This document shows positions 4,811 through 22,943 of a stretch of DNA of 30,017 bases, in pieces (within the stretch, counting starts at the first letter, position 1; each line of letters starts with the position of its first letter). Under the pieces are notes generated by a model, which saw nothing but the letters and a program-made list of their open reading frames with translations, was not told the DNA's origin and made no database searches. The translations under genes and the position numbers were made by a program. Source of the stretch: a virus; the UHGV virus genome UHGV-0128346; one strand, given 5' to 3'.

Positions 4811-6764
4811 TCACTCCTCCGGACAGCTTCGCTGCCAGTTCTTTAAGGGTTGGCCGGGTCGTCTCTTCTTCCCGGGATTTTGCCAGTACAGCCAGATCAA
4901 GCTGCCAGCGTTGCACGGACACACGTAATGCCGCGTAGGCATACACCAGGCAGTCCAGCGCTTCGTTACGCCGCTTTTTGTTATCCCACAGCAGACGCAT
5001 CTTTCCTTTTTCCCACTTCTCCACAAGCTCTTCCGCGACCAGTTGCTGCGCCTCTGTCTGCGAAAAAATCTCCGGATCATCAGGAAAACGGATAGCATAC
5101 GACGTGGCTTCATCCACAGGCGTGGGATCGGCTTTCATACGGGCATAGAGAATTTCTTTTGCGGTGTCCGTCCCCACTTCACACAGATACACGCCCCGCT
5201 GATTGCGGGTTTTTGGCATGGTGATCACCGGCTTGCCATAGACAGATGCGCCTTTTACCGGCAGCACCCGGAAAACACCGTGTTTTTTTGACCTCTGATA
5301 AACGATTTCGCCATCGATCCCCCCGATGTCCCAGCAGACACGGGAAATGGTCATTTCGGTTCCGTCTGCATGGCGGTATTTTTTGTTGATCGCCGCATCC
5401 ACACGTAACAGCGTCTCTTCCTCATCGGGACGCCCCATAATGATGATTTTATCCACCAGAAAGGCTTCCTCTCCCGGAGCCCATCCCCAGACATACATCT
5501 CAAAACGGTTTCGCTGCGAGTCAATGCCCGCCGTCAGATAAACCACCCGGGCAGGCACCGCCGCCGTGTAACGCACAACCTTATCCATCAGCACCTGGTG
5601 ATCGAGTTTTTCGCCCACAGCCTCTTCCCAGGTCTCGCCCAGCGTGGTGTTCACAAAGGTTTTCAGGCCGTTGGGATCTTTCAGTGCATCCAGCCAGTCA
5701 TAGACAATCTGTACCCAGGTGGTGAACGGACTGTACGCCGTCCAGATATGGAAAGTGATGGAGCGCGGCGGCGGAATTTCATCACCCCGGGCGCTGAAAA
5801 ACATCAGGCCGTCACGGGTCCACATGCCCGTGTTTTCACAGATCCACCGCCCGTTACTCTGGTCAAGCTCAGACTGATGGATCACACAGCCATGATGCTC
5901 ACAAAGGTAGAAAACACTTTCTGGCTTATTCTTCTCCCACTTAAGACCGAAAGGCGAGGCATCATCGCCAAATTTCAGATACTGCTCCTCCCCACAGTGC
6001 GGACAGGGCACATAAAAACGCATGAAGTGTGCCGACTCGTTAGCGGCTTTTTCGATCTGGCAGGAGCCTTTGATTTTAGGCGTCGAGCCGCGAATGGATT
6101 TTGGCCATACAGAGCCCTCAATACGTTTATCCCCCAGCAGGGTTGGCGAACCCTCTTTTTCAACATCCGGTTCGAACGAGGAAAGCTCGTCATAACAGAC
6201 CACATCCACGGATTTTTCACGGTAGTTTTTTGCTGCCGCACCACCCAGACACCAGAACCCCACACCGGAGGAAAAACGCTTCAGGGTGAGCGTATTATCG
6301 CGGTGTTTTCTTCCGAACCATGGAGCCAGCTCCAGCAATGCAGGAACATCCCTTATCGTTGGCTCAACATGAGATTTCATAAAATCTTCAGCAGCTGAGT
6401 CCGTGGGCTGAAAAAGAAGGCTGTTGCGTGATTTATGCTCAATAAAATAAGCCTCCACTCCCAGCAACATCTTTGTATAACCAACACGGGCAGATTTAAT
6501 CAGGTTAACCGTGCGAATCAGATCGTTGCCCATACAGTTCATGATGCCAACCTGAAACGGCAGTGTTTCCCATCGCCCCGGGGTATAAGACGACTCTTTA
6601 GGAAGGTAATAATGTTTATTGGCCCACTGAACTGTCGTCAGTGGAACAGGAATAATGAGAGATAAAAGCCCTGTAGCTATCGCACCGGCTGCATTAGCTG
6701 CCTTCTGCGCGTCTGAAATCATCGATCCACCCGCCCACGTTTTCACCGGCCTTAGCTGCAACAT
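4794..6764 (-). CDS. A: Terminase large subunit (lambda gpA-like)
   Basis: 656-aa ORF immediately after Nu1, size and position of lambda A; overlaps the Nu1 3' end as in lambda. Confidence 0.93.
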
Positions 6765-7242
6765 TGGAGGCTTTCGCGATTTCAGTTTTCACCACATCAA
6801 GGTGTGATGGTGAAATGTCCGGATATTTACGCTGTAATGTCAACGGCACACGCACAAGTATCCCCGAAATCTCCTGTGCCACACGTTGCAGAATGAAGGT
6901 AAACAGTTCAGTTTCCAGCACTACTCCGTCTTCACGGGCATTTTTCAGTTCCTGCGCATCTGCCTGCGCTTTTGTGAGCCGGTAGCGTTCATAGTCAATG
7001 GTGCCGGGTTGTAAATCTGACTCCGCTGCCGCACGCAAATCGTCCAGTTCTTTGCGGAGCTTTTCGTTTTCGATATCAGTTTCCCTCTGCGCATACCACT
7101 GAATTGCCATGGCAGTATCAAATACAGATTCAATGCCCTTACTACCTTTGGAGGCGCAAGGGAGTCCCTGAGACTGCCAGCGTTCAATCGTCCGCGGGTC
7201 CACGTTGAAAATTTCGGCAAGCCTCTTTTTATTAACCTTCAT
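6694..7242 (-). CDS. nu1: Terminase small subunit (lambda Nu1-like)
   Basis: 182-aa ORF; N-terminus [12 protein letters not shown]...[15 protein letters not shown]...[28 protein letters not shown] closely matches recalled lambda Nu1; first gene after cos. Confidence 0.9.
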
Positions 7243-10318: not shown

Positions 10319-10423
10319 GGATATTTATCAGGATTTATCGGTTTCTGAACCCTGGATATGTTTATCTGTCCCGGCCTGTTGAATCAGGCAAGGAATAGTT
10401 AAATACAATAGAGAGGATTGTTT

Positions 10424-11740: not shown

Positions 11741-12028
11741 AGAGGGGTATCATACAAGGGGATGACCATGATGCATGGTGCCGGGTGCCTCCCGGTGAGT
11801 CCGGCATCAGCATACGAACCCGCGATTATCCCAGAACTGACTGCTGATTCGCCCCGCCGCTTAGGGGGATTCACCATGCGTTTTTTTATTTACAAACTCT
11901 TCGCCAGACAAACAACCATTAACTGGCTGAATTGTGAGGTATTTCAATTTTTAGAAAACTGACCAACCTCCGCTTATACGCCGGGCATGGAGCGGATACA
12001 AAAAAGCCCCGCAAAAGCAGATCAGAAG

Positions 12029-12069
12029 GATTCGTTGTAAAAAAAAAGCTGTCAGATTATCGCGCTAAT
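12029..12069 (-). terminator. Intrinsic terminator downstream of the beta-class methyltransferase
   Basis: Perfect 13-bp inverted repeat AGCTGTCAGATTA-TCGCGC-TAATCTGACAGCT, followed by a T-run of 8 or more on the minus strand. Confidence 0.7.
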
Positions 12070-12319
12070 CTGACAGCTACAGCAGGTATCCAAAAACATG
12101 GGTGGAAACAATAAGTGAGTTAAGAAGACACGGTGTCGGATTTTTACCGATGAGCCGTTGGCGTGGTCAACCGTGACTCGCTTGTATCAACGATGAATTA
12201 ATGAAGCCAATCCTTTGCAGGCTATGTACAACCCACCACATCAGCCCTGCTGCATTGCAGGATACACTGTATCTGTAATCATTATACGGCACAGACATCC
12301 CACCAATAATTGAATTAAT

Positions 12320-13381
12320 TCACAAAATTGTATTTGCTGATAACATACTGATTTCCTGGATGGTCTGATTAAACCGCTCTGTCTCAAGCTCAACACCTAA
12401 CGCCCGACGCCCCAGCGCCATTGCTGCTTTTATTGTGGAACCGGATCCCATAAAGAAATCAGCAACCAGATCGCCGGGTCGACTACTGGCATTGATTATT
12501 TGCCTGAGCATATCCGCCGGTTTCTCACACGGATGTTTACCCGGGTAGAACTGAACGGGTTTATGCATCCAGACATCGGTATAAGGCACGGAGACTGATA
12601 CGGAGAAATAGCGCCGGAGAGATTTAAACTCATCCAGCAATTCAGAATATTTGCGATTCAGTGAATCATAAGATGCCACCAACTGGTGGTGTGGTTGTTC
12701 CAGTTGTTGTTCCTGAAACTTCTCTGCCGCTATACGGGAAAACAGTGCCTGTAACTTCCGGTAGTCAGCCTCATTCGGCAACTGCCACTGACTGGCACCA
12801 AACCAGTGGGAAACCATATTTTTCTTACCTGTGGCTTCGGCAATTTGTTTTGCCGTTATACCCAGTTCGGCACGAGCATCCCTGAAATACGATATCAGCG
12901 GTGCCATTATGTGCTGTTTGAGTTCCCTTTCTTTTGCCACATAGCCGTCACTTTTGCCGCGATATGGCCCCCGGTAATGTTCAGCAAACAGAACGCGCTC
13001 TGTGGCAGGAAAATATGCGCGCAGACTTTCTTTATTACACCCATTCCAACGTCCGGACGGCTTCGCCCAGATGATATGGTTAAGCACGTTGAAACGTTCA
13101 CGCATCATGATCTCAATATCAGATGCCAGGCGATGCCCACAGAACAGGTAAAGGCTTCCGGCAGGTTTCAACACCCGCCAGAACTGGGCCAGACAGTGGT
13201 CCAGCCACTTAAGGTAATCTTCGTCCCCTTTCCACTGATTGTCCCAACCGTTGGGTTTCACCTTGAAGTAAGGCGGATCGGTAACAATCAGGTCAATGGA
13301 ATCATCAGGCAGGGACTGAATAAAATGCAGGCAATCAGCGTTGATTAAATCAATACTGTTTATTTTTACAGTGTTTTTCAT
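12320..13381 (-). CDS. DNA methyltransferase, beta-class (N6-adenine or N4-cytosine); motif IV DPPY near N-terminus, motif I FxGxG near C-terminus
   Basis: 353 aa; LIVTDPPYF at residues ~31-39 and DFFMGSGST near the C-terminus give the beta-class motif order; no adjacent restriction enzyme recognised. Confidence 0.85.
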   Translation of the reverse strand: MKNTVKINSIDLINADCLHFIQSLPDDSIDLIVTDPPYFKVKPNGWDNQWKGDEDYLKWLDHCLAQFWRVLKPAGSLYLFCGHRLASDIEIMMRERFNVLNHIIWAKPSGRWNGCNKESLRAYFPATERVLFAEHYRGPYRGKSDGYVAKERELKQHIMAPLISYFRDARAELGITAKQIAEATGKKNMVSHWFGASQWQLPNEADYRKLQALFSRIAAEKFQEQQLEQPHHQLVASYDSLNRKYSELLDEFKSLRRYFSVSVSVPYTDVWMHKPVQFYPGKHPCEKPADMLRQIINASSRPGDLVADFFMGSGSTIKAAMALGRRALGVELETERFNQTIQEISMLSANTIL

Positions 13382-13530
13382 GGATCAGTAAGCGTAACTC
13401 TGGTAGGCTCACTCTGCTTTTGCGCTAAAGCAGTGGGCCATGGTTCGCTTGTGACCAGTAAGCATGAGCGAATGGCTGGCAGGTGCTACCAACACCCACC
13501 AGCCGCCCATTTTCACAAATTAAAAGCCCT

Positions 13531-13725
13531 TCATTGCTGAAGGCGTCTGTAACAGCCGAACTGGTAATCTGCCAGCCCCGCCATAACCAGCTGGGTCAGT
13601 ATTAACTGACAGCGTTCGCGTGAAAGGTATGTGTTTTGTGCTATCTCCCCGACTGTTGCCGGTTTGCCGTTTAATTCATTAAAAACAACTTTCGCCGTTT
13701 CTGTCATATCTTGCTGTTTTAGCAT
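13531..13725 (-). CDS. Hypothetical small wHTH-like DNA-binding protein (64 aa)
   Basis: ATVGEIAQNTYLSRERCQLILTQLVMAGLA resembles a helix-turn-helix; ~150 nt upstream of the methyltransferase on the same strand. Confidence 0.35.
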   Translation of the reverse strand: MLKQQDMTETAKVVFNELNGKPATVGEIAQNTYLSRERCQLILTQLVMAGLADYQFGCYRRLQQ

Positions 13726-13840
13726 GTCTTTTTACCTTCATGGTTAACATGACATACCAATAACTCTTGTCTAAAAAGCCAGCAAGATAAAAAGTCAGTA
13801 TTCACGACCACCAGCGTGTTTACCGTACTGCACCAATGTT

Positions 13841-13870
13841 TAATTTATAAAAAAACCGCGAGAACGCGGT
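13841..13870 (-). terminator. Intrinsic terminator after the 176-aa cargo ORF
   Basis: ACCGCG-AGAA-CGCGGT hairpin followed by a U-rich tract on the minus strand. Confidence 0.6.
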
Positions 13871-14591: not shown

Positions 14592-15344
14592 TTATCTCGT
14601 CACCTTTCTCAATTGTGCTTCAGCGAATGCTTCTTCCTGCCAGCACTTTGTTACCAGTTTATCAATGACGTCTGCATATCCTTTGTACCACTGATAATCA
14701 GTCAGGTCTGGTACCAGCTTCTGGACATGACGTCGTGCCAGTGTGGTCGGTAAACGACTAAACCGGTTTCCATTGCAACGCCCACAAATCTTATAAACAG
14801 GCGCGCCATGAAGCCGGGTTCTTTTTTCATCCAGGACAATGCCTTTACCCTTACACCCTCTGCAAGCCGTGCTGACTTCTCCCTTACCATGGCAATGCTG
14901 ACATAATTCCTTCACCCACTCTTCCTTGATAACAGATTCCCCGCTTCTGGAGTGTTTCACCACTTCGCGCAATACACTATGAAATCCAGTACCAGCACAA
15001 TGCTCACAGCGAGCCTTACTTGCCGCAGACCTGGAATAATCAGCAAAGGCAAAACTCACAAGGTAAGGGATGATCTGTAACCGGGTTTCTTCACTCAATT
15101 TGTTCAATGTCGGGTTATCCATTGCCATCGCGTAATTGAGCAGACCTTCAATCGCAAACTGAGGATCCTGAACACCAACTTTTGCCAGGAATAAGGCAAA
15201 CCCAAGCGGTGCTTTCGACTGCACCATCCCCTGCGCAGCCATCACATCCGTAATCGTTAAACCACCTGAGCCTGTCGCCGGTGCGTCATCGCTCAATTTT
15301 GGAGATTTTGGGGAGTAATATTTTGGTAAGGCTTCAAGGTTCAT
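14592..15344 (-). CDS. Q: Late-gene antiterminator Q (lambda Q family, 250 aa)
   Basis: Matches recalled lambda Q: YYSPKSPKLSDDAPATGSGGLTITDVMAAQGM, FAFADYSRSAASKARCEHCAGTG, C-terminal ...VTR; Cys-rich zinc-binding motifs; same length as the Qin prophage homologue. Confidence 0.85.
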   Translation of the reverse strand: MNLEALPKYYSPKSPKLSDDAPATGSGGLTITDVMAAQGMVQSKAPLGFALFLAKVGVQDPQFAIEGLLNYAMAMDNPTLNKLSEETRLQIIPYLVSFAFADYSRSAASKARCEHCAGTGFHSVLREVVKHSRSGESVIKEEWVKELCQHCHGKGEVSTACRGCKGKGIVLDEKRTRLHGAPVYKICGRCNGNRFSRLPTTLARRHVQKLVPDLTDYQWYKGYADVIDKLVTKCWQEEAFAEAQLRKVTR

Positions 15345-15357
15345 GCTCGTTCTCCAC

Positions 15358-16353
15358 TTACGCCAGTACGCCTATTGCCAGCGCATGATCGATAAAACGA
15401 AATATCAGCTCCAGCTGGGAGCCATACATCTCTTCAAATGCCACGGTATCCGCATGCAGCTCGTCGTGATGCTTTCTGCACAAAGGCAACACAAAGAGGT
15501 CATGCGCTTTTGTACCCATTCCACCCTGACCATGGCCTATCAGGTGGTGGGGATCATCAGCAGGCTTTCCACAACATGCACACGGCTGTGTCTTAACCCA
15601 GCGCGTGTACTTTTCATTAACCCAGCGGCGACGTTTTGGGCGTAACATAAAAGACTCCGGCGACTCTGGCTCCACTTTCAGCGCCAGCACCTTTTTCGCT
15701 TTATCCTGGATAATGCTGGTGGCAGGAACCGAAGGAACAAGGTCACTCTCCCGGGTGACAGACGGCACAACCGGCTTCGGTAATCTCAGTGCCTTACGGG
15801 CTGCACTTTCCGGTAAGGCATCCGCCAGGTCATTACGAACCAGCCACCAGCACAGTTCCGGCATTGTCACTACGTGACTGTCATCAAAACCGAGATCCCG
15901 ACGCACGACAGATAACACCCAGTGGGCACAGTTATCCGTTGCCATTGATTCCAGCCGTTCCGTGAACTGATCACGCAACTGGTTATCGCAGTGCCAACAC
16001 AGACGAATTGCGCCCGGCGCGTGTCGCATTGTGGTCATGTTCTCGCTGTGCCAGTCGGAATGAGGCCACTGACAGCCCTTTTCACGAAGTAACCAGCTTT
16101 CAAGACATTCCACGCCACCAGCACGACGGATCACTGCCTCATTGCGGAACACGGCCCGAACGGCAGGATCATCCGCCAGCGGTTGTGATGCCGCCGGAAC
16201 GGCACCACTGGCGAAAGATGAATAACGTTCCGGCTCAGGCTCCAGCAGGACACGCCCCTGCATAAACAGGGGCATCAGCTCTGAACCTGGCCTGAACAAT
16301 ACGATCCCCATACGCGGGGCAATTTCAGGGGTCAGTAGTGCTCTCACGGTCAC
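15358..16353 (-). CDS. DUF968-like protein with C-terminal HNH-like Cys/His motif (YdfU-like)
   Basis: 331 aa; C-terminal CACCGKPADDPHHLIGHGQGG...CRKHHDELH; upstream of Q, as ydfU is in Qin. Confidence 0.6.
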   Translation of the reverse strand: MTVRALLTPEIAPRMGIVLFRPGSELMPLFMQGRVLLEPEPERYSSFASGAVPAASQPLADDPAVRAVFRNEAVIRRAGGVECLESWLLREKGCQWPHSDWHSENMTTMRHAPGAIRLCWHCDNQLRDQFTERLESMATDNCAHWVLSVVRRDLGFDDSHVVTMPELCWWLVRNDLADALPESAARKALRLPKPVVPSVTRESDLVPSVPATSIIQDKAKKVLALKVEPESPESFMLRPKRRRWVNEKYTRWVKTQPCACCGKPADDPHHLIGHGQGGMGTKAHDLFVLPLCRKHHDELHADTVAFEEMYGSQLELIFRFIDHALAIGVLA

Positions 16354-16354
16354 C

Positions 16355-17152
16355 TCAATGAACGGTATCGAGCAGCTTTAACAGCTCAGGGAATCGGGAT
16401 TCGAAGAAATGCGGCTGCGTCTCGCGCGGATTTGCAGGACTGGTGATGTTCTTGCCGAACATGCAGCCTTTCGCCGTCAGCGACCAGAATTTTTTGATGT
16501 TGTTAATCGCGGTACGGCTGTATCGTTCGCGTTGTTCAACGATCCCCAGCTTCACCATCTGGTGATATGCCTGATTAGCCGTCAGGCGGATACCATACTG
16601 TTTCAGCAGTGCACTCAGTGACAGTGTCGGGCGACTTGAGCCATCGTGTGCATCAGCAGGAGCATCAATGGCATAGCGCGGTGCCAGATTCGGTAAGCCA
16701 ACAGCCTCCTGGAGTTTCTGACAGGCACCAAGCACAGATGAGTTAGACAGGTTTAACTCCCGACGCATAAAGTCCAGCAGAATCACACCAGCCTGCATCT
16801 TGTCAGCAGCCTGTCCGGATAATTTTTCCGGTGCGCTGGTTACCATGTCGAAAGTACGGATCACCTTAAGATGGAATGACGGGCTTATCCACATTGCATA
16901 GGCATACACCAGTTCTTTGCAGACATACGTCCCCTGGTTATTTCCGCCACGAATAACGTTAACTGGCTCTATATTGACCGAGTTGCAAATCTGCAACTCG
17001 CTTATTAAACGTTCAGTTTGCTCATTGCGGAGCCAGAATGCAGGCTTATGCTTATCCAGAGAACCGGCAGCCCTGTGAAGATCGTTCAGGCTGTAACGAC
17101 CATAAGCATCACGACGAACTTCAATACCATCAATAACCATCAGATTATTCAT
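16355..17152 (-). CDS. KilA-N domain protein
   Basis: N-terminal VIDGIEVRRDAYGRYSLNDLHRAAG...KPAFWLRNEQTERLI is a typical KilA-N signature. Confidence 0.7.
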   Translation of the reverse strand: MNNLMVIDGIEVRRDAYGRYSLNDLHRAAGSLDKHKPAFWLRNEQTERLISELQICNSVNIEPVNVIRGGNNQGTYVCKELVYAYAMWISPSFHLKVIRTFDMVTSAPEKLSGQAADKMQAGVILLDFMRRELNLSNSSVLGACQKLQEAVGLPNLAPRYAIDAPADAHDGSSRPTLSLSALLKQYGIRLTANQAYHQMVKLGIVEQRERYSRTAINNIKKFWSLTAKGCMFGKNITSPANPRETQPHFFESRFPELLKLLDTVH

Positions 17153-17171: not shown

Positions 17172-17561
17172 TCAGGCGGCTGCACCCGCCGTTTTCTCGT
17201 ACTTACTGATAGTGATCTCGACCTTCCCTTCCGGGATAACCGGTCCCCACTCCACCAGCATTCTTTTCACCTGACTGTCGTCTTCCCACACACCCGCGTG
17301 GGTCAGGGCGTCAAACAGCGCCTTGTTATAGTTGTCCAGATCGCGGATCCGGTTATCCGGAGGAAACAACACGATCTCCACTGAAGCAGGTGCCGACGTT
17401 GGTTTCGGCAGACGACGTAACTGCTCAACTATTGCTGCGCACGCCGCGCTCTGGAATTTTCGCCCCGCCGCGCTTATCAGGCTCTTACCAGCAAACGCCC
17501 CTTTGTTGGGGTGTCGCCAGTACGTGTTCACGCTGGGCGGAAAAGGCAGGATCAGCTTCAT
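17172..17561 (-). CDS. rusA: RusA Holliday-junction resolvase
   Basis: 129 aa with PFPPSVNTYWRH...DLDNYNKALFDALTHAGVWEDDSQV, matching RusA catalytic-region motifs. Confidence 0.9.
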   Translation of the reverse strand: MKLILPFPPSVNTYWRHPNKGAFAGKSLISAAGRKFQSAACAAIVEQLRRLPKPTSAPASVEIVLFPPDNRIRDLDNYNKALFDALTHAGVWEDDSQVKRMLVEWGPVIPEGKVEITISKYEKTAGAAA

Positions 17562-17884
17562 ACTTTCAGGCCCCTCTCATGTAACCAGTGGGCTGCACGC
17601 AGCCTTGCGTTTTCCTCACCGGCAAGCAGTGAGCGGATAATCCCGACCGCCTCGCTGTCGTCGTCCTTCACCGCGGTATGAAGCGTGATGCCCCGGGCCA
17701 CGCCACGCTTTATCGTGATGACGCCTTTTTTCTCCAGTGCGCGAAGATGCTCCACCGCTGCATTCACTGAACGGTATCCCAGCATGGTTGCCACCTCCTG
17801 ATTGGTTGGCGGGAAGCCACGTTCTTTCTGATAAGAAATCAGCATATCCAGCACCTGCTGCTGGCATTGAGTTAACGTCGTCAT
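17558..17884 (-). CDS. LexA N-terminal DNA-binding-domain homologue lacking the S24 peptidase domain
   Basis: First ~70 aa (LTQCQQQVLDMLISYQKERGFPPTNQEVATMLGYRSVNAAVEHLRALEKKGVITIKRGVARGITL) match the recalled E. coli LexA N-terminus motif for motif; total length 108 aa. Confidence 0.7.
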   Translation of the reverse strand: MTTLTQCQQQVLDMLISYQKERGFPPTNQEVATMLGYRSVNAAVEHLRALEKKGVITIKRGVARGITLHTAVKDDDSEAVGIIRSLLAGEENARLRAAHWLHERGLKV

Positions 17885-18534
17885 GCCGCCATCTCCCTGA
17901 CCAGTTTTTCCGCCTGCTGGCGAACCTGCACCAGAAAGGCTTCACCACATGCCTCAAGTTCATCGCGCCCGATGTAGCTGATTGCCGGTCCCTTCCAGGT
18001 CTTGTCGAAAACAGCAATAGCACCAGCGAAGAAAGCGCCTGTCGGCACCTGCTTCTCATCCTTCGGGATAAACCAGGCAGGCAGTTCAAAACCAATACGC
18101 CCGCGAATAAAAGCAATATGGTCCGCATCTTCCGGCCACCACACTTCGCTGGTGGCAGCTTTGATCAGGAAAACATAGCGCCCGCCCTTATCACGCATGG
18201 CACTGGCATGTTTCATGATGTAACGCATGCCGGTGATGTATTGCCCCTCATGCTGACTGGCGCGGCTGTATGGGGGATTACCAAAGGCAGCACCTTTAAG
18301 CTCCGCAAGACGTTCTGACCAGTCATGCGCCAGCGCGTTATCTTCCGCCGTGTAATACGCGGCACATTTGGCGTTATCACCGTCAGTAAACAGATCCAGA
18401 ACAAACGGGCCAAACAGGGTGTTAATTCCCCAGAAAATGTTGTCCGGCGTGCGCCACTGATCGCCCACTTCCTTCAGTTCATGGGCTGGTTTGTTCCGCA
18501 GTTCCGCCAGCGCCTGGCAATATTTATTACTCAT
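17881..18534 (-). CDS. Phage Dam-family N6-adenine DNA methyltransferase
   Basis: FGNPPYS catalytic motif; likely start at Met12, where the upstream stop and this ATG overlap (TAATG). Confidence 0.8.
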   Translation of the reverse strand: MSNKYCQALAELRNKPAHELKEVGDQWRTPDNIFWGINTLFGPFVLDLFTDGDNAKCAAYYTAEDNALAHDWSERLAELKGAAFGNPPYSRASQHEGQYITGMRYIMKHASAMRDKGGRYVFLIKAATSEVWWPEDADHIAFIRGRIGFELPAWFIPKDEKQVPTGAFFAGAIAVFDKTWKGPAISYIGRDELEACGEAFLVQVRQQAEKLVREMAA

Positions 18535-19028
18535 TAAGCCCCCACGTAATTCCCTGAGAGATACCACTCTTCACCTGATGCAGCCCGCTTACTGCTTTTC
18601 CGTAAACACCGTTCACGACGCGCCAGAAAATTGTTTCGTTCTGGCTGGGAGTGGCTTTCACGGAATGCCGCCATCCACACCGTTGCAGCACGACGGTATA
18701 AGCCCCTCGACTCCAGTTCTTCAGCCTGGCGGGTCAGGCACAAAATCACCCGGGGGTCGTTAGTGCCGACATAGAACTTGCGCACAGGTCTGGTTTCACG
18801 AACTGGTTGTGGTTCCGGCTCCTGCGCTCTCTCAGTCAGGCGCGAGAAATGTCTGCGTGTATCTCCTTCACAACGGTGAGCCACACGCCCACTCTGACGT
18901 AACTTGCTTGCTGACTGCAGAACGCGCTGCCGTGAGTAACCTGCAAAAGCATCCGCAATGTCTCCGGAAGTACACCCCGGATGGGCTTCAATGAATTTCT
19001 GAACTTCATTCAAAAGACTCATGATCAC
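18534..19028 (-). CDS. PerC-family transcriptional regulator-like protein (Pch-like)
   Basis: C-terminal RGLYRRAATVWMAAF...ERNNFLARRERC fits the PerC motif (G-x-[WY]-RRAA-x-x-W); start overlaps the stop of the replication gene (ATGA). Confidence 0.45.
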   Translation of the reverse strand: MIMSLLNEVQKFIEAHPGCTSGDIADAFAGYSRQRVLQSASKLRQSGRVAHRCEGDTRRHFSRLTERAQEPEPQPVRETRPVRKFYVGTNDPRVILCLTRQAEELESRGLYRRAATVWMAAFRESHSQPERNNFLARRERCLRKSSKRAASGEEWYLSGNYVGA

Positions 19029-20017
19029 CCCCTGAATCCTGCCGGGATCTGGCTGTAGTCCACGTTGTCGTAACTGGATTTGAAGTACGGATCTTCACGT
19101 TTTTCTGTGTATGTGCTGACGGACGGCGATAAGCGCAGGGAAAGCTCATCCCATTTTTCCCGCAGCTTCGACGGGCTGAGCACGTTACGGCACCAGAACG
19201 GATCGCGGCTGACGCGGCTGTACATCTCGCAGATTTGTTTGTGAGTACGACCATCCTGCACACACATCAGGCGAATTTCGTTTGCCCAGGCTGTCCAGTT
19301 CGGTTCTTTGGGACGAACCACCTCGCCGTCACATTCGGCAGCCTGCTCGTACAGGGCGATGATTTTTTTCCAGAGCCACTGTGCGCAGGTCAAATCATCC
19401 TGCGTTCCCCACTGGCGCTTTTTAGGGCTGAATACAACCGCATCAGGATGGCGAGTTAAAAACTCCTGTTCAGCCGTTTGCGTGTCCGGTTGCGAAGCGT
19501 CCGGACGAGAAGAGGTTTTATTCTCTGTAGTAATCTCTGTTGTATTCTCTGTAAGATCATTGGGCCATTTTGACCCGATGACAGCGTGTCGTTTTGAACC
19601 AATGGATCGTGTCATTTTGCGCCCATCCATCAGGTCACTTTGACCCGATGGAGAAGTGCATTTTGACCTGATGGATTCGTTCACTTTGACCTCTTCTAAA
19701 AGCTCACTTTCATAGTTGATCGTGTAGAAGTTGGTCATGTCACGCTTCGATTTATTGAGTTGCTCGCGACGCAAAACCCCAAGTGATTTCAGGCTTGCAA
19801 ATGTGCGTTTCAGAGTGGACTCTGACCAGAACGGAAACTGCTCCAGCCACTGTTCTGTCGTGTTATAAACCCAGCGAATTCCGCCATGCTCAGTGCCTGA
19901 ATTCGTTTCATTCAGCCAGTAATGAAGCTGCTGCAACACAATTGCCTCATTCAGACCAATACGGCATGCAAGATCACGATTTATCACAATGGGCTGGGAT
20001 GTCATTAACAGGCTCAT
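19025..20017 (-). CDS. Replication initiator (lambda O-like: N-terminal DNA-binding part, iterons within the gene)
   Basis: 330 aa; at least five ~16-bp iterons (consensus CAYTTTGACCYGATGG) lie inside the coding sequence next to an AT-rich stretch, the arrangement of ori-lambda inside O. Confidence 0.7.
   Translation of the reverse strand: MSLLMTSQPIVINRDLACRIGLNEAIVLQQLHYWLNETNSGTEHGGIRWVYNTTEQWLEQFPFWSESTLKRTFASLKSLGVLRREQLNKSKRDMTNFYTINYESELLEEVKVNESIRSKCTSPSGQSDLMDGRKMTRSIGSKRHAVIGSKWPNDLTENTTEITTENKTSSRPDASQPDTQTAEQEFLTRHPDAVVFSPKKRQWGTQDDLTCAQWLWKKIIALYEQAAECDGEVVRPKEPNWTAWANEIRLMCVQDGRTHKQICEMYSRVSRDPFWCRNVLSPSKLREKWDELSLRLSPSVSTYTEKREDPYFKSSYDNVDYSQIPAGFRG
19563..19715. repeat. Origin iterons (5-6 copies of CAYTTTGACCYGATGG at ~22-bp spacing)
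   Basis: Direct repeats read in the sequence: cattttgacccgatg, cactttgacccgatgg, cattttgacctgatgg, cactttgacctc, plus weaker copies. Confidence 0.65.
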
Positions 20018-20238
20018 GCCGCACCTCCGAGATGCTTCATGTTTTTTCCGGAGCGAAAGGCTATAAGCGGCATACTGACGCGGTAATTACGACCCAGCGG
20101 TTCACAAATCACCTTCTGACATTCACGGTCCACCAGGCTAACACGTAGAACATGCCCTGCAGGCGTGGTGTACCACTGACCGGGGCGAGGACAACGGAAA
20201 GTCTGATTGGTAAATCGTTTGAAAATATTCCGGATCAT
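20014..20238 (-). CDS. Hypothetical protein (74 aa)
   Basis: Both ends overlap neighbouring genes by 4 nt (ATGA), suggesting translational coupling in the early-right operon. Confidence 0.45.
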   Translation of the reverse strand: MIRNIFKRFTNQTFRCPRPGQWYTTPAGHVLRVSLVDRECQKVICEPLGRNYRVSMPLIAFRSGKNMKHLGGAA

Positions 20239-20780
20239 TTGCGCCCCCTTACCTCTGAAGGGTTCAGCGACAAATTTATGAGACTGGCCAGTAGCGCCGC
20301 GTCGTTGATGCGGTCATACAGACTTACAGCCAGCGGGGATTCGGCTTTTGCCAACATGGGATAAAGCTGCTGCAGCCAGACCTGATGAATTGATGAAATG
20401 TAGGAATAGAGAACGCTGGCGTTATGTGCAACGTCGCTCAGTACAGAGGGATTTGAAAGCTGTTTCTCCATCTGGTTAAAGGCATTGATGTATGCCTCTT
20501 TGAACCGGGCAGCACGTTTCCCCGTGAAGCCCATGGCAAGAAACGCAAAACCGTCGCGGGTGATTTGGTAACAAGGGAGTTTGCGGCCTGTGCAATCGGT
20601 GTAATCACTGGGCTGAAAATTCAGCTCAGTGAATTCAACAGAGCACTCAAGCGTCTGGATTTTTTGAATAACGTTTTTGTGCTGCTTGCAGAAATATTCG
20701 GCAACGGCCAAAGAAGAGGTAACAGCCTTCCCATGGATAACATCAATTTTAGGGTGAGTTTGGGTAGGGGTGGTTGCCAT
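20235..20780 (-). CDS. Phage regulatory protein Rha
   Basis: From the internal Met, VTSSLAVAEYFCKQHKNVIQKI...YQITRDGFAFLAMGFTGKRAARFKEAYINAF matches the Rha N-terminal domain; GAGGA ribosome-binding site 9 nt upstream. Confidence 0.7.
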   Translation of the reverse strand: MATTPTQTHPKIDVIHGKAVTSSLAVAEYFCKQHKNVIQKIQTLECSVEFTELNFQPSDYTDCTGRKLPCYQITRDGFAFLAMGFTGKRAARFKEAYINAFNQMEKQLSNPSVLSDVAHNASVLYSYISSIHQVWLQQLYPMLAKAESPLAVSLYDRINDAALLASLINLSLNPSEVRGRK

Positions 20781-20942
20781 AGTGACATCCTCATGTGCGA
20801 ATTTTGAAAACTCACCACATGGGACGCCAATCACAGAGGTGGTGAGACGTACAGGGTTGGCGTAACCGGTCGCACATGACCCCGGCGCATCTTTCGATGC
20901 CCCTGCACGCCCCACCATAATTTGGATGTGAGGAAACGTGCG

Positions 20943-20966
20943 CAAAAAAACCGCTGAAGCGCGGTT
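20943..20966 (-). terminator. tR1-like intrinsic terminator in the early-right operon
   Basis: ACCGC-TGAAGC-GCGGT hairpin followed by U7 on the minus strand. Confidence 0.5.
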
Positions 20967-21376
20967 ATGCGCATGTGCGAATTTCAGGACGCCAATCCCG
21001 GCACCCGCTTTATAAGGTGCCTGAACAGTGTAACGTCCCGGAATTGCAGAATCAATATGCTGGTGGTCCTTCACACTCAACAAAATCACGCCTGAATTTC
21101 CACAAAGGACTAAAGCACTCATGCGGGTAGTCTTTGCGAAGATAGATAACGCGCTGTGTTTCTGGCTCCCAACGAATAACATGGACATAAAGCCCTCTTC
21201 CGTCACGAAACCAGCGGTTAAGTTCCTGCACAACTCGCCCCCCACAGTCAGGTAAAGTTCTCTGTGGTTACTTACAGCCAGGTGATTTGGTAATCTGCAT
21301 TCATGCCGTAACAACAGGTGTTCAGCGACGCTGACCACCAGCTGTTGCGACAAACGGTTATTTGCCGTTAAACTAT

Positions 21377-21946
21377 TCATGCGTTAGTTTCTCCACAACC
21401 AGAAGCAATCGACGCCACGACGCCCGGAGCTGCACACTCGCGGGCGTTACTCTTTTCTGGAGCGCAGAAGATTTTGTAGACCAGTGCTGCATGCTCCTGG
21501 AGCTTCGAAATTGAAAGATACAGTTCGTCGTTAATTGCTGTCTTCTCATGCGGTTCCACTACACCGTCTTCGATTGCTGAACGAATCTGTCTGGAATAAC
21601 TGCCGATCTGTTCAATGACTTCCAGCAGGCGCTGGTTTATATCGGCGTTCTCTACTGCCTCAATTTCAGGAAGCGATACGAACACCCCACCAGCAGACTG
21701 TGCGACAGCATCCGCAATGTAGTGAGTGCCAGCCGCACGCTGTAAAACCATTGCCCATCCCAGCGGGAAAATCTGATCGCCATCTGCACGAAGGCGGTTG
21801 AATAATGCGTTCTCTGTTACATCCAGCCACTCAGCAGCTTCAGCGTAACCCCCCGGCAACGCCGCGATAGTTTTTCTGACAGCTTTCACGTACCACTCAG
21901 GCTGTTTTTCTACTTTCCAGTGATGCTTACCCACGGTTAGCCTCAT
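21377..21946 (-). CDS. CII/YdaT-like regulatory protein (189 aa)
   Basis: Immediately follows the Cro/YdaS-like gene, as ydaT follows ydaS in prophage Rac; weak resemblance to 186-type CII; family not confirmed. Confidence 0.4.
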   Translation of the reverse strand: MRLTVGKHHWKVEKQPEWYVKAVRKTIAALPGGYAEAAEWLDVTENALFNRLRADGDQIFPLGWAMVLQRAAGTHYIADAVAQSAGGVFVSLPEIEAVENADINQRLLEVIEQIGSYSRQIRSAIEDGVVEPHEKTAINDELYLSISKLQEHAALVYKIFCAPEKSNARECAAPGVVASIASGCGETNA

Positions 21947-22268: not shown

Positions 22269-22943
22269 ATGAAAACAGTCCATGACATCCGGCGGTCTAA
22301 CGCCAGAAAACTGAGAGATGGTGTTGGCGGGAATTCTTCCTTTGCCACCATGATTGATCGCGAGCCAACCCAGACCAGCAGGTTTATGGGAGATGGTGCT
22401 ACTAAAAATATCGGTGACAGCATGGCACGGCACATCGAAAAATGTTTCGACCTGCCTGTCGGATGGCTTGATCAAGAACACCAGACAACAAACATCACAA
22501 AAAAACCTGATGTTTCAATTACTAACAAACAAATAACGTTAGTCCCTGTCATATCATGGGTACAGGCCGGAGCATGGAAAGAAGTTGGCTATTCTGAGGT
22601 TGATTTGAGCACAGCAGAAACTTATCCCTGCCCTGTACCCTGTGGCGAAATGACTTATATCTTGCGGGTGATTGGTGATTCAATGATTGATGAGTACCGC
22701 CCGGGAGACATGATTTTTGTTGATCCCGAAGTCCCTGCCTGCCACGGTGACGACGTTATTGCATTGATGCACGATACAGGCGAAACCACCTTCAAGCGAT
22801 TGATAGAAGATGGAACACAGCGTTATCTCAAAGCATTAAACCCAAACTGGCCTGAGCCTTACATTAAGATTAACGGTAATTGCTCTATAATTGGTACAGT
22901 AATTTTCTCAGGAAAACCAAGAAGATACAAAATAAAGGCCTAA
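22269..22943 (+). CDS. cI: cI-like prophage repressor (HTH plus S24 LexA-like autopeptidase)
   Basis: C-terminal half matches the S24 fold of recalled P22 C2 and lambda cI (ISWVQAG, GDSM, PGDMIFVDPE, TFKRL, LNPNWP, INGNCSIIG). Confidence 0.85.
   Translation: MKTVHDIRRSNARKLRDGVGGNSSFATMIDREPTQTSRFMGDGATKNIGDSMARHIEKCFDLPVGWLDQEHQTTNITKKPDVSITNKQITLVPVISWVQAGAWKEVGYSEVDLSTAETYPCPVPCGEMTYILRVIGDSMIDEYRPGDMIFVDPEVPACHGDDVIALMHDTGETTFKRLIEDGTQRYLKALNPNWPEPYIKINGNCSIIGTVIFSGKPRRYKIKA

Follow-up and report, generated by a model that had tools for sequence, protein, structure and literature searches.

A truncated LexA homologue in the early-right operon of a lambdoid prophage: a LexA-type winged helix with a conserved tail and without the autopeptidase domain, and its possible role as a RecA-insensitive LexA surrogate

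In the present study, we analysed a gene for a small LexA-like protein in the virus genome UHGV-0128346, a stretch of 30,017 nucleotides (hereafter the window) that represents a lambdoid prophage. The product of this gene, called LexA-DBD here for its LexA-type DNA-binding domain, is a LexA-type winged helix without the autopeptidase domain, and it carries in addition a conserved two-helix tail. We tentatively favour the reading that it is a RecA-insensitive surrogate of LexA, which would bind SOS-type operators after prophage induction and re-impose repression on them. The gene and the parts of its protein are as follows.

17558-17884, minus strand: LexA-DBD gene, 108 amino acids (exact match to the open reading frame list; the overlap with both neighbours was read from the sequence)
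residues 1-69: LexA-type winged helix-turn-helix with the recognition helix RSVNAAVEHLRALEKKG
residues 70-73: linker, low-confidence in the model
residues 74-103: conserved two-helix tail

The N-terminal part of the protein covered the whole of the Pfam family PF01726 (LexA_DNA_bind, positions 1-65 of 65) with E=2.9e-19 and 69 bits, against a gathering score of 23.7, and PHROG 362 ('transcriptional repressor') matched from end to end (residues 1-108 against 1-106 of 106, E=1.4e-59). Chains of Escherichia coli LexA in the Protein Data Bank (PDB) were found at E~1e-15 with about 50% identity across residues 2-69. The structure was taken from an AlphaFold model based on an alignment of 19 family sequences, with a mean predicted local distance difference test score (pLDDT) of 83, as the single-sequence model was too poor (pLDDT 61). 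Residues 1-67 or 1-69 of this model superpose on the LexA DNA-binding domain of 3JSO, a LexA-operator crystal structure, within 1.0-1.1 Å. The original prediction had proposed homology to the N-terminal winged helix of LexA and had called for an alignment to LexA and structural modelling; both were run, and the Pfam match, the identity of about 50% and the 1.0 Å fit to 3JSO confirm the LexA DNA-binding fold.

The S24 peptidase family PF00717 had no match in the 108-residue protein when searched with Pfam, and the full-length LexA model TIGR00498 reached a score of 70.8 against a cutoff of 110.95, aligning at model positions 1-91 of 203 only. There is no room for an S24 domain, because the following gene, RusA, starts four bases ahead of the LexA-DBD stop. 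Scans with PADLOC and NCBIfam returned only LexA matches for the protein. The non-cleavable architecture that had been suggested for the protein is therefore upheld: the autopeptidase is absent, hence there can be no inactivation through RecA-stimulated self-cleavage. The earlier description of its end was right as to the missing S24 domain and has to be corrected as to a stop at the hinge, since 35-38 further residues follow and form the family-conserved two-helix tail. The C-terminus of the phage protein reads ...ERGLKV.

Operator contacts in LexA are made by Ser39, Asn41, Ala42, Glu44 and Glu45 (PMC3091678). At the aligned positions the phage protein has S39, N41, A42, V44 and E45, so that four of the five are kept, and its recognition helix RSVNAAVEHLRALEKKG can be set against RSPNAAEEHLKALARKG of LexA. 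Across the family alignment S39 is invariant and N41 nearly so, and the wing residues R64, G65 and I66 together with K53-G54 are invariant as well. The N-terminal domain of LexA retains some SOS-box binding and repression, and SOS activation needs its removal by ClpXP (PMC10584840). A stable homologue of this domain is a plausible repressor, because the lone LexA N-terminal domain keeps some repression; binding of the phage protein to SOS boxes is likewise what its retained contact residues would predict.

The tail of the protein is modelled as two helices, residues 74-87 and 93-103, with block-mean pLDDT values of 77-89. Residues A97 and L101 are invariant across the family alignment, and L86 and L87 are nearly invariant. 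LexA normally dimerises through its C-terminal domain. The tail appears to be a helical hairpin with a conserved hydrophobic face, which would stand in for the lost C-terminal dimerisation domain. As a separate observation, many database proteins of 140-350 amino acids (P0132, P0133, P0148, P0152, P0153, P0156 and others) contain two tandem LexA-type DNA-binding domains, and these could be a covalent pseudo-dimer answer to the loss of the LexA dimerisation domain.

Residues 70-90, which include the beginning of the tail, align weakly with the hinge and cleavage region of LexA in HMMER, and A88-G89 falls opposite A84-G85 of LexA. Relatives have AN, VG or unrelated residues at this position, and the segment is modelled as helix. 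A mimic of the cleavage site, or a substrate for cleavage in trans, was rejected for these reasons, namely the lack of conservation of AG among family members and the helical model of the segment. The same weak alignment, with its AG, would also be expected if a lexA gene had been captured, had lost its 3' half and survived as a relic without function, and this possibility can be judged from the distribution of the gene and from the selection acting on it.

Of 5426 complete E. coli genomes, 2233 (~41%) contained DNA of the LexA-DBD gene at no less than 95% identity; there it almost always lies between 'phage N-6-adenine-methyltransferase' and 'RusA' and is annotated in RefSeq as 'LexA family transcriptional regulator' (WP_000210164). 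Fifty deposited phage genomes carry it, including those of the Shigella phages SfV, SfII and SfIV, of cdtI and mEp460, and of Stx2a, Stx2c and Stx2k converting phages, and at least 1000 contigs encode the identical protein. Down to 39-51% identity, relatives retain a length of 105-135 amino acids, the tail and the gene order, and the hosts of the family are Escherichia, Shigella, Citrobacter, Salmonella, Klebsiella, Enterobacter, Cedecea and Hafnia. The ratio of nonsynonymous to synonymous substitution rates (dN/dS) against two close alleles was 0 and 0.11. These comparisons indicate that the gene is real and under selection and exclude a decaying lexA fragment, because length, tail and gene order are kept and dN/dS is low. 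The relic explanation is hardly credible, given that these features, with the two invariant tail residues, are preserved to 39% identity across eight genera and that the start and stop overlaps of the gene are intact. A single-protein scan of species genomes returned mostly genuine lexA loci, and a scan of viral contigs with the protein of a Salmonella prophage (L017) as query gave no match. Four database entries (P0021, P0092, P0098 and P0120) fuse a Dam domain (PF05869) to LexA-DBD; rather than true fusions, these most likely come from frameshifts or read-through in the calling of the two genes where they share the four bases ATGA.

The early-right operon of the prophage in the window lies on the minus strand, divergent from the CI gene, and LexA-DBD is one of its members. 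The features of this region are given here in the order of the operon, beginning with the repressor.

22269-22943, plus strand: CI-like repressor with S24 peptidase domain (PF00717, E=1.5e-26)
first in the early-right operon, minus strand: cro-like gene
21377-21946, minus strand: cII
20235-21380, minus strand: Ash/Rha protein, 381 amino acids (Ash-family domain at residues 117-211, Rha regulatory domain at 221-306)
19025-20017, minus strand: O-like replication gene
18534-19028, minus strand: PerC/YfdN-like gene
17881-18567, minus strand: Dam (N6-adenine methyltransferase; PF05869, E=1e-45), directly upstream of LexA-DBD
17881-17884, minus strand: ATGA overlap of the Dam stop and the LexA-DBD start (translational coupling)
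17558-17561, minus strand: ATGA overlap of the LexA-DBD stop and the RusA start
17172-17561, minus strand: RusA Holliday-junction resolvase, directly downstream of LexA-DBD
16355-17152, minus strand: KilA-N protein
15358-16353, minus strand: DUF968/HNH
14592-15344, minus strand: Q antiterminator, 250 amino acids

A Shine-Dalgarno-like sequence, GGGAGA, stands 8-13 nucleotides 5' of the LexA-DBD start, and no promoter-like or terminator-like sites were found on the minus strand from 17561 to 20017. From this arrangement, LexA-DBD should be a delayed-early gene of the nin region, off under CI and made after induction or infection; the lytic-phase timing follows because the gene is coupled inside the CI-repressed early-right operon and lacks its own promoter. 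Another idea places production of the protein in the lysogen, where it would shield the prophage or the host from SOS induction, either as an SOS repressor that cannot be induced or by competing with LexA. This idea draws on the non-cleavable architecture and the LexA-like contact residues, and a little protein could come from low-level read-through or from spontaneous induction. We consider it very improbable. A gene whose translation is coupled to that of its neighbours in the early-right operon, and which follows cro, cII and the replication gene there, is ill placed for shielding a lysogen, which the original prediction had offered as one role; furthermore, the S24 domain of the prophage CI should make this repressor directly responsive to RecA, and in two relatives (L014 and L017) the gene stands behind a LexA-repressed promoter and would be off in the lysogen as well.

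Two observations on other members of the operon may be recorded here. Relatives of the 381-residue Ash/Rha open reading frame carry RefSeq-type labels of peptidase or Rha. The Q protein of the window has a DnaJ-type CXXCXGXG zinc-finger region, a sub-threshold Pfam match, and a relative with an identical LexA-DBD gene (L001) has a different, shorter Q, which places a mosaic junction between DUF968 and Q.

For the search of SOS boxes, a matrix was made from 21 E. coli boxes, with a training median of 20.6 bits; it is to be read as a lead rather than a curated matrix, and as a check it recovered the paired boxes beside genuine lexA genes in four loci (L010-L013). The search of the window for CTGT-N8-ACAG palindromes, which had been proposed with the original prediction, was run and gave exactly one strong box, which lies in a second methyltransferase gene.

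13354-13373: SOS box TACTGTTTATTTTTACAGTG, 22.3 bits, over codons 3-9 of the N6_N4 DNA methyltransferase open reading frame
12320-13381, minus strand: N6_N4 DNA methyltransferase open reading frame, downstream of Q

This sole strong box may be compared with the highest of 200 shuffle maxima, 20.8 bits, and the second-best score in the window was 10.2 bits. In the kilobase to either side of the LexA-DBD gene in the window, the matrix scan gave no score higher than 6 bits, and the gene has no SOS box of its own there. Palindromes of the form CTGT-N8-ACAG with at most one mismatch numbered 21 in the window against 9.3±3.2 in shuffles, and other spacings gave 7-23 matches, with no outlying spacing among CTGT-Nk-ACAG for k=0-24. 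A general enrichment of SOS-like palindromes was ruled out on this ground, as the excess is not specific to N8 and reflects CTG/CAG codon composition.

Host LexA, the LexA-DBD protein or both are candidates for binding the box at 13354-13373, and the position of this box suggests that the phage methyltransferase is under LexA control. All 27 phage records with the box-bearing 5' end of the methyltransferase also have LexA-DBD, and 23 carriers of LexA-DBD are without that 5' end. The same box also occurs in L001 and, together with the same methyltransferase, in the Salmonella prophage L017, whose LexA-DBD is 39% identical. We regard this association of methyltransferase and LexA-DBD as suggestive.

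Further sites of this kind were seen elsewhere. A near-consensus SOS box of 25.8-27.0 bits lies inside the coding sequence of a CI-like repressor in three relatives (L001 at 21870-21889, L006 at 10333-10352 and L016 at 2836-2855); these CI-internal boxes occur in relatives with a different immunity region, and the CI gene of the window has none. Upstream of the methyltransferase in the window, a strong hairpin that resembles a terminator, ACCGCGTTCTCGCGGT with a T run behind it, is located at 13855-13870, and an open reading frame of 64 amino acids (13530-13725, minus strand) lies between this hairpin and the methyltransferase. An imperfect palindrome, CTTGCTGGCTTTTTAGACAAG, is found at about 13765-13785, just upstream of the 64-residue frame. 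At the corresponding position of phage phiSTEC1575-Stx2k, a small open reading frame is annotated as a TrmB-family regulator.

In some relatives, LexA-DBD is found in a LexA-controlled unit. The Enterobacter/Cedecea loci L014 and L015 and the Salmonella prophage L017 have short CI repressors without S24, and 5' of LexA-DBD they show, in order, a terminator, a promoter-like region, a LexA box and an open reading frame of 75-82 amino acids. The LexA boxes ahead of these units score 21.0 bits (L014/L015) and 26.4 bits (L017), and L014 together with L020-L024 and L017 ranges over 17.6-26.4 bits. The 75-82-residue frames are homologous to each other and correspond to phrog_1813 ('unknown function'). 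LexA-DBD lies just downstream of the phrog_1813 frame in three lineages, the Enterobacter/Cedecea L014 group, the Salmonella prophage L017 and a Klebsiella phage (L044), the record of the last beginning at dinI and so covering the gene order and not the region upstream. In Salmonella phage SPN3UB and Citrobacter phage Chris1, the phrog_1813 frame comes directly after dinI. The Gifsy module described by Lemire et al consists of a terminator, a LexA box, dinI and a small GUG-initiated antirepressor, with short non-cleaved repressors (PMC3121763). The place of this LexA-controlled antirepressor is the one taken by the phrog_1813 frame.

An SOS box of 17.6-27.5 bits was among the two top-scoring sites in 28 of 28 collected phrog_1813 loci, and in 27 of them it lies 140-350 bp 5' of the phrog_1813 frame; for L014 the box ranks second among the sites and is 153 bp upstream. 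LexA-DBD follows the frame in 7 of these loci, DinI precedes it in 13, and a DinI remnant is present in 8. The regions of the phrog_1813 frames are as follows.

L014, 7560-7961: phrog_1813 open reading frame region
L017, 7561-7951: phrog_1813 open reading frame region
L018, 4161-4734: phrog_1813 open reading frame region
L019, 1724-2286: phrog_1813 open reading frame region
L020-L043: phrog_1813 open reading frame regions as well

On these grounds, phrog_1813 is probably an unannotated family of LexA-controlled antirepressors. A strict alternative of either DinI or LexA-DBD held in the 28 loci and was rejected, being broken by Klebsiella phage ST846-OXA48phi9.1, which has DinI, the phrog_1813 frame and LexA-DBD in a row. 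In L035-L042 (~2485-2934), the antirepressor-like gene is preceded by a pair of SOS boxes with about 240 bp between them and by a frame of 58 amino acids that starts MKIEVT and resembles a truncated DinI. Standing behind a LexA-repressed promoter, LexA-DBD of L014 and L017 would be made exactly when host LexA is lost, and in phages of this type it could feed back on the LexA box of its own unit. The window itself has no homologue of DinI or phrog_1813, and its CI has an S24 domain, so that the features of the Gifsy-type module are not found in it.

The gene neighbourhood was compared in loci that differ in their immunity modules (S24-type CI or short helix-turn-helix-only CI) and in their replication modules, which among the carriers are of the Phg_2220_C, lambda-P and DnaT/DnaC types. 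Almost all of the examined loci have LexA-DBD directly 5' of RusA, followed by DUF968 and Q. Some have a small open reading frame (as in L002 and L014) or an antirepressor/KilA gene between LexA-DBD and RusA, and L044 has DUF968 and Q, with RusA absent. A role as replication accessory of the Phg_2220_C initiator was rejected, because the carriers have three different replication modules.

This neighbourhood bears on another possibility, that LexA-DBD is no transcription factor but an accessory of DNA metabolism in the nin region, which would guide or tune the recombination and nuclease functions next to it (RusA, DUF968/HNH) or the methyltransferases, or would bind phage DNA structurally. Its adjacency to RusA, DUF968 and Q is the most constant feature across immunity and replication modules, and a Dam or C5 DNA methyltransferase gene is the direct upstream neighbour in the window, in L002 and in L016, and stands two genes upstream in L017. 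Weak matches of the winged helix with DnaD_N and O-like replication initiators might also be named in its favour, but these are insignificant (E=0.15 and 0.009) beside LexA_DNA_bind (E=3e-19). A replication-specific role is unlikely because the replication modules vary among carriers, and adjacency in mosaic nin regions is weak evidence for physical cooperation; altogether we hold an accessory role to be quite improbable. As separate observations, L017 has a Cas1-domain protein beside an AcrVA2-like protein at 11794-13390, between the methyltransferase and the lysis genes, and L014 has a bacterial RNase A-like toxin with a CdiI_2-like immunity gene (a faint Pfam hit) at 5863-7232, in reverse orientation in the nin region and just upstream of the LexA-boxed unit.

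The reading that we favour, with less than even confidence, can be set out in steps. After induction of the prophage by the SOS response, with cleavage of CI, or after infection, LexA-DBD would be made from the early-right operon. The near-intact LexA recognition helix would direct it to CTGT-type, SOS-box-like operators, and the tail would dimerise the protein in place of the missing C-terminal domain. The exposed ...VAA end of the LexA cleavage fragment is reportedly, from work of Neher in 2003, a mark for ClpX. Having neither an S24 domain nor a ...VAA end, the phage protein should be removed neither by RecA-stimulated cleavage nor by ClpXP. It would persist and re-repress LexA-controlled promoters once host LexA has been destroyed. 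Candidate targets are the SOS genes of the host and phage promoters with LexA boxes, for example the box of the methyltransferase gene (13354-13373); the promoter of the antirepressor would be a further candidate in Gifsy-like relatives.

Several points weigh against this surrogate reading. E44 is kept in no member of the family, and some members, among them the Salmonella protein that stands behind a perfect LexA box, have L or I in place of E45, Y in place of N41, or T, G or S in place of A42; operator specificity may therefore differ from that of LexA. Dimerisation through the tail we only infer, and the spacing of half-sites could be other than in LexA. The matrix scan found no strong SOS box near the gene in the window, L002, L003 and L016. 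The association with the box-bearing methyltransferase may be linkage, as about 4.5 kb separates the loci on a mosaic backbone and many records are nearly identical to each other. The place downstream of the antirepressor may be no more than the result of an SOS module having inserted before the conserved nin block of LexA-DBD, RusA, DUF968 and Q. Full-text literature searches turned up no functional study, DNA binding or SOS phenotype for the lambdoid family, and the phage GIL01 offers a different precedent in gp6, a truncated LexA homologue with its own palindrome that activates a late promoter (PMC6182141).

The last point leads to the main rival, in which the winged helix has been re-tuned to a phage-specific, non-SOS operator. 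The protein would then activate or repress a phage promoter and so time the lytic cycle, and it would not act directly on the SOS regulon of the host. Apart from gp6 itself, re-targeting appears common, from the stand-alone LexA DNA-binding proteins of 65-150 amino acids in many phages, and the family-wide replacement of E44, the variability at other contact positions, a tail that could set a different half-site spacing and the several relatives without an SOS box near the gene would all fit. On the other side, the recognition helix is closer to LexA than would be expected after re-targeting, with S-x-N-A-A-x-E-H-L kept, and the CTGT-Nk-ACAG counts in the window (k=0-24) revealed no phage-specific palindrome. 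Late transcription in lambdoid phages relies on antitermination by Q, which is present at 14592-15344, so a late activator would be unneeded. We judge such a re-targeted regulator to be rather unlikely.

The surrogate reading may be carried further, to a family that serves as a phage 'SOS off-switch', that is, an uncleavable, ClpXP-resistant substitute for LexA that re-silences LexA-controlled promoters in lytic growth. Three purposes are proposed for it: (a) ending the antirepressor pulse in Gifsy-type phages, (b) silencing rival LexA-controlled prophages, colicins or SOS-induced defences, and (c) holding down ruvAB, recA and recN of the host so that the adjacent RusA handles the junctions. 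This extension is speculative and we think it unlikely as it stands. If it were true, carriage by Stx2a, Stx2c and Stx2k phages could influence SOS-dependent output of Shiga toxin and cross-induction of prophages. A RecA-proof LexA surrogate as such would, if confirmed, be a phage-borne brake on the SOS response at the level of operators, alongside DinI at the level of RecA, and would have a bearing on the dynamics of prophage induction, on cross-talk of co-resident prophages, on SOS-driven mutagenesis and on the release of Shiga toxin.

Compared with known systems, the protein is closest in its DNA-binding part to E. coli LexA (TIGR00498; PDB 3JSO and 1LEA), with a winged helix 50% identical over residues 2-69, a fit of 1.0 Å, and S39, N41, A42, E45, R64, G65, I66 and K53-G54 in common. 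It differs in lacking the S24 and dimerisation domain with the Ser119/Lys156 dyad, in the change of E44 to V, in the two-helix tail and in the position of its gene, which in the window is in an operon with no SOS boxes in front. The LexA 1-84 fragment resembles it as a LexA DNA-binding domain without the C-terminal domain, and this fragment retains some SOS-box binding, but it is a natural product of cleavage that is cleared by ClpXP (PMC10584840); the phage protein would, by comparison, probably be stable and possibly dimeric. Repressors of the BlaI/MecI type have a similar architecture, with about 110-125 amino acids, an N-terminal winged helix and a short helical C-terminal part. The analogy is of architecture only, as there is no sequence relationship, whole-length Foldseek matches to 2g9w and 1sd7 were poor (root-mean-square deviation 6.7-8.5 Å), and operators and signalling are unlike.

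The DinI protein of Gifsy-type phages is a phage copy of a host SOS component, encoded beside an antirepressor in a unit behind a terminator and a LexA box (PMC3121763), and LexA-DBD is the accessory partner of the antirepressor in the similar units of L014 and L017; DinI, however, acts on RecA filaments rather than on DNA operators. Among phage proteins, gp6 of the Bacillus phage GIL01 is 44% identical to host LexA's DNA-binding domain, binds a distinct palindrome at about -43.5 and is an activator of P3, a late promoter; its expression falls early in the lytic cycle after SOS induction, and homologues are widespread in related phages (PMC6182141). GIL01 is a tectivirus of a Gram-positive host, and gp6, which is without an extra tail, uses K38 to recognise its non-LexA palindrome and serves as an activator of a late promoter (PMC6182141), whereas the lambdoid protein keeps a host-type recognition helix; gp6 was compared here through its published description. 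The lambdoid gene already has annotations in RefSeq and PHROGs, and its sequence was determined with that of SfV (record U82619.2). Truncated LexA homologues encoded by phages have been known since gp6, while the lambdoid family is apparently unstudied, and it is set apart from gp6 by the conserved tail, by the retained LexA recognition residues, by the type of phage and probably by its role.

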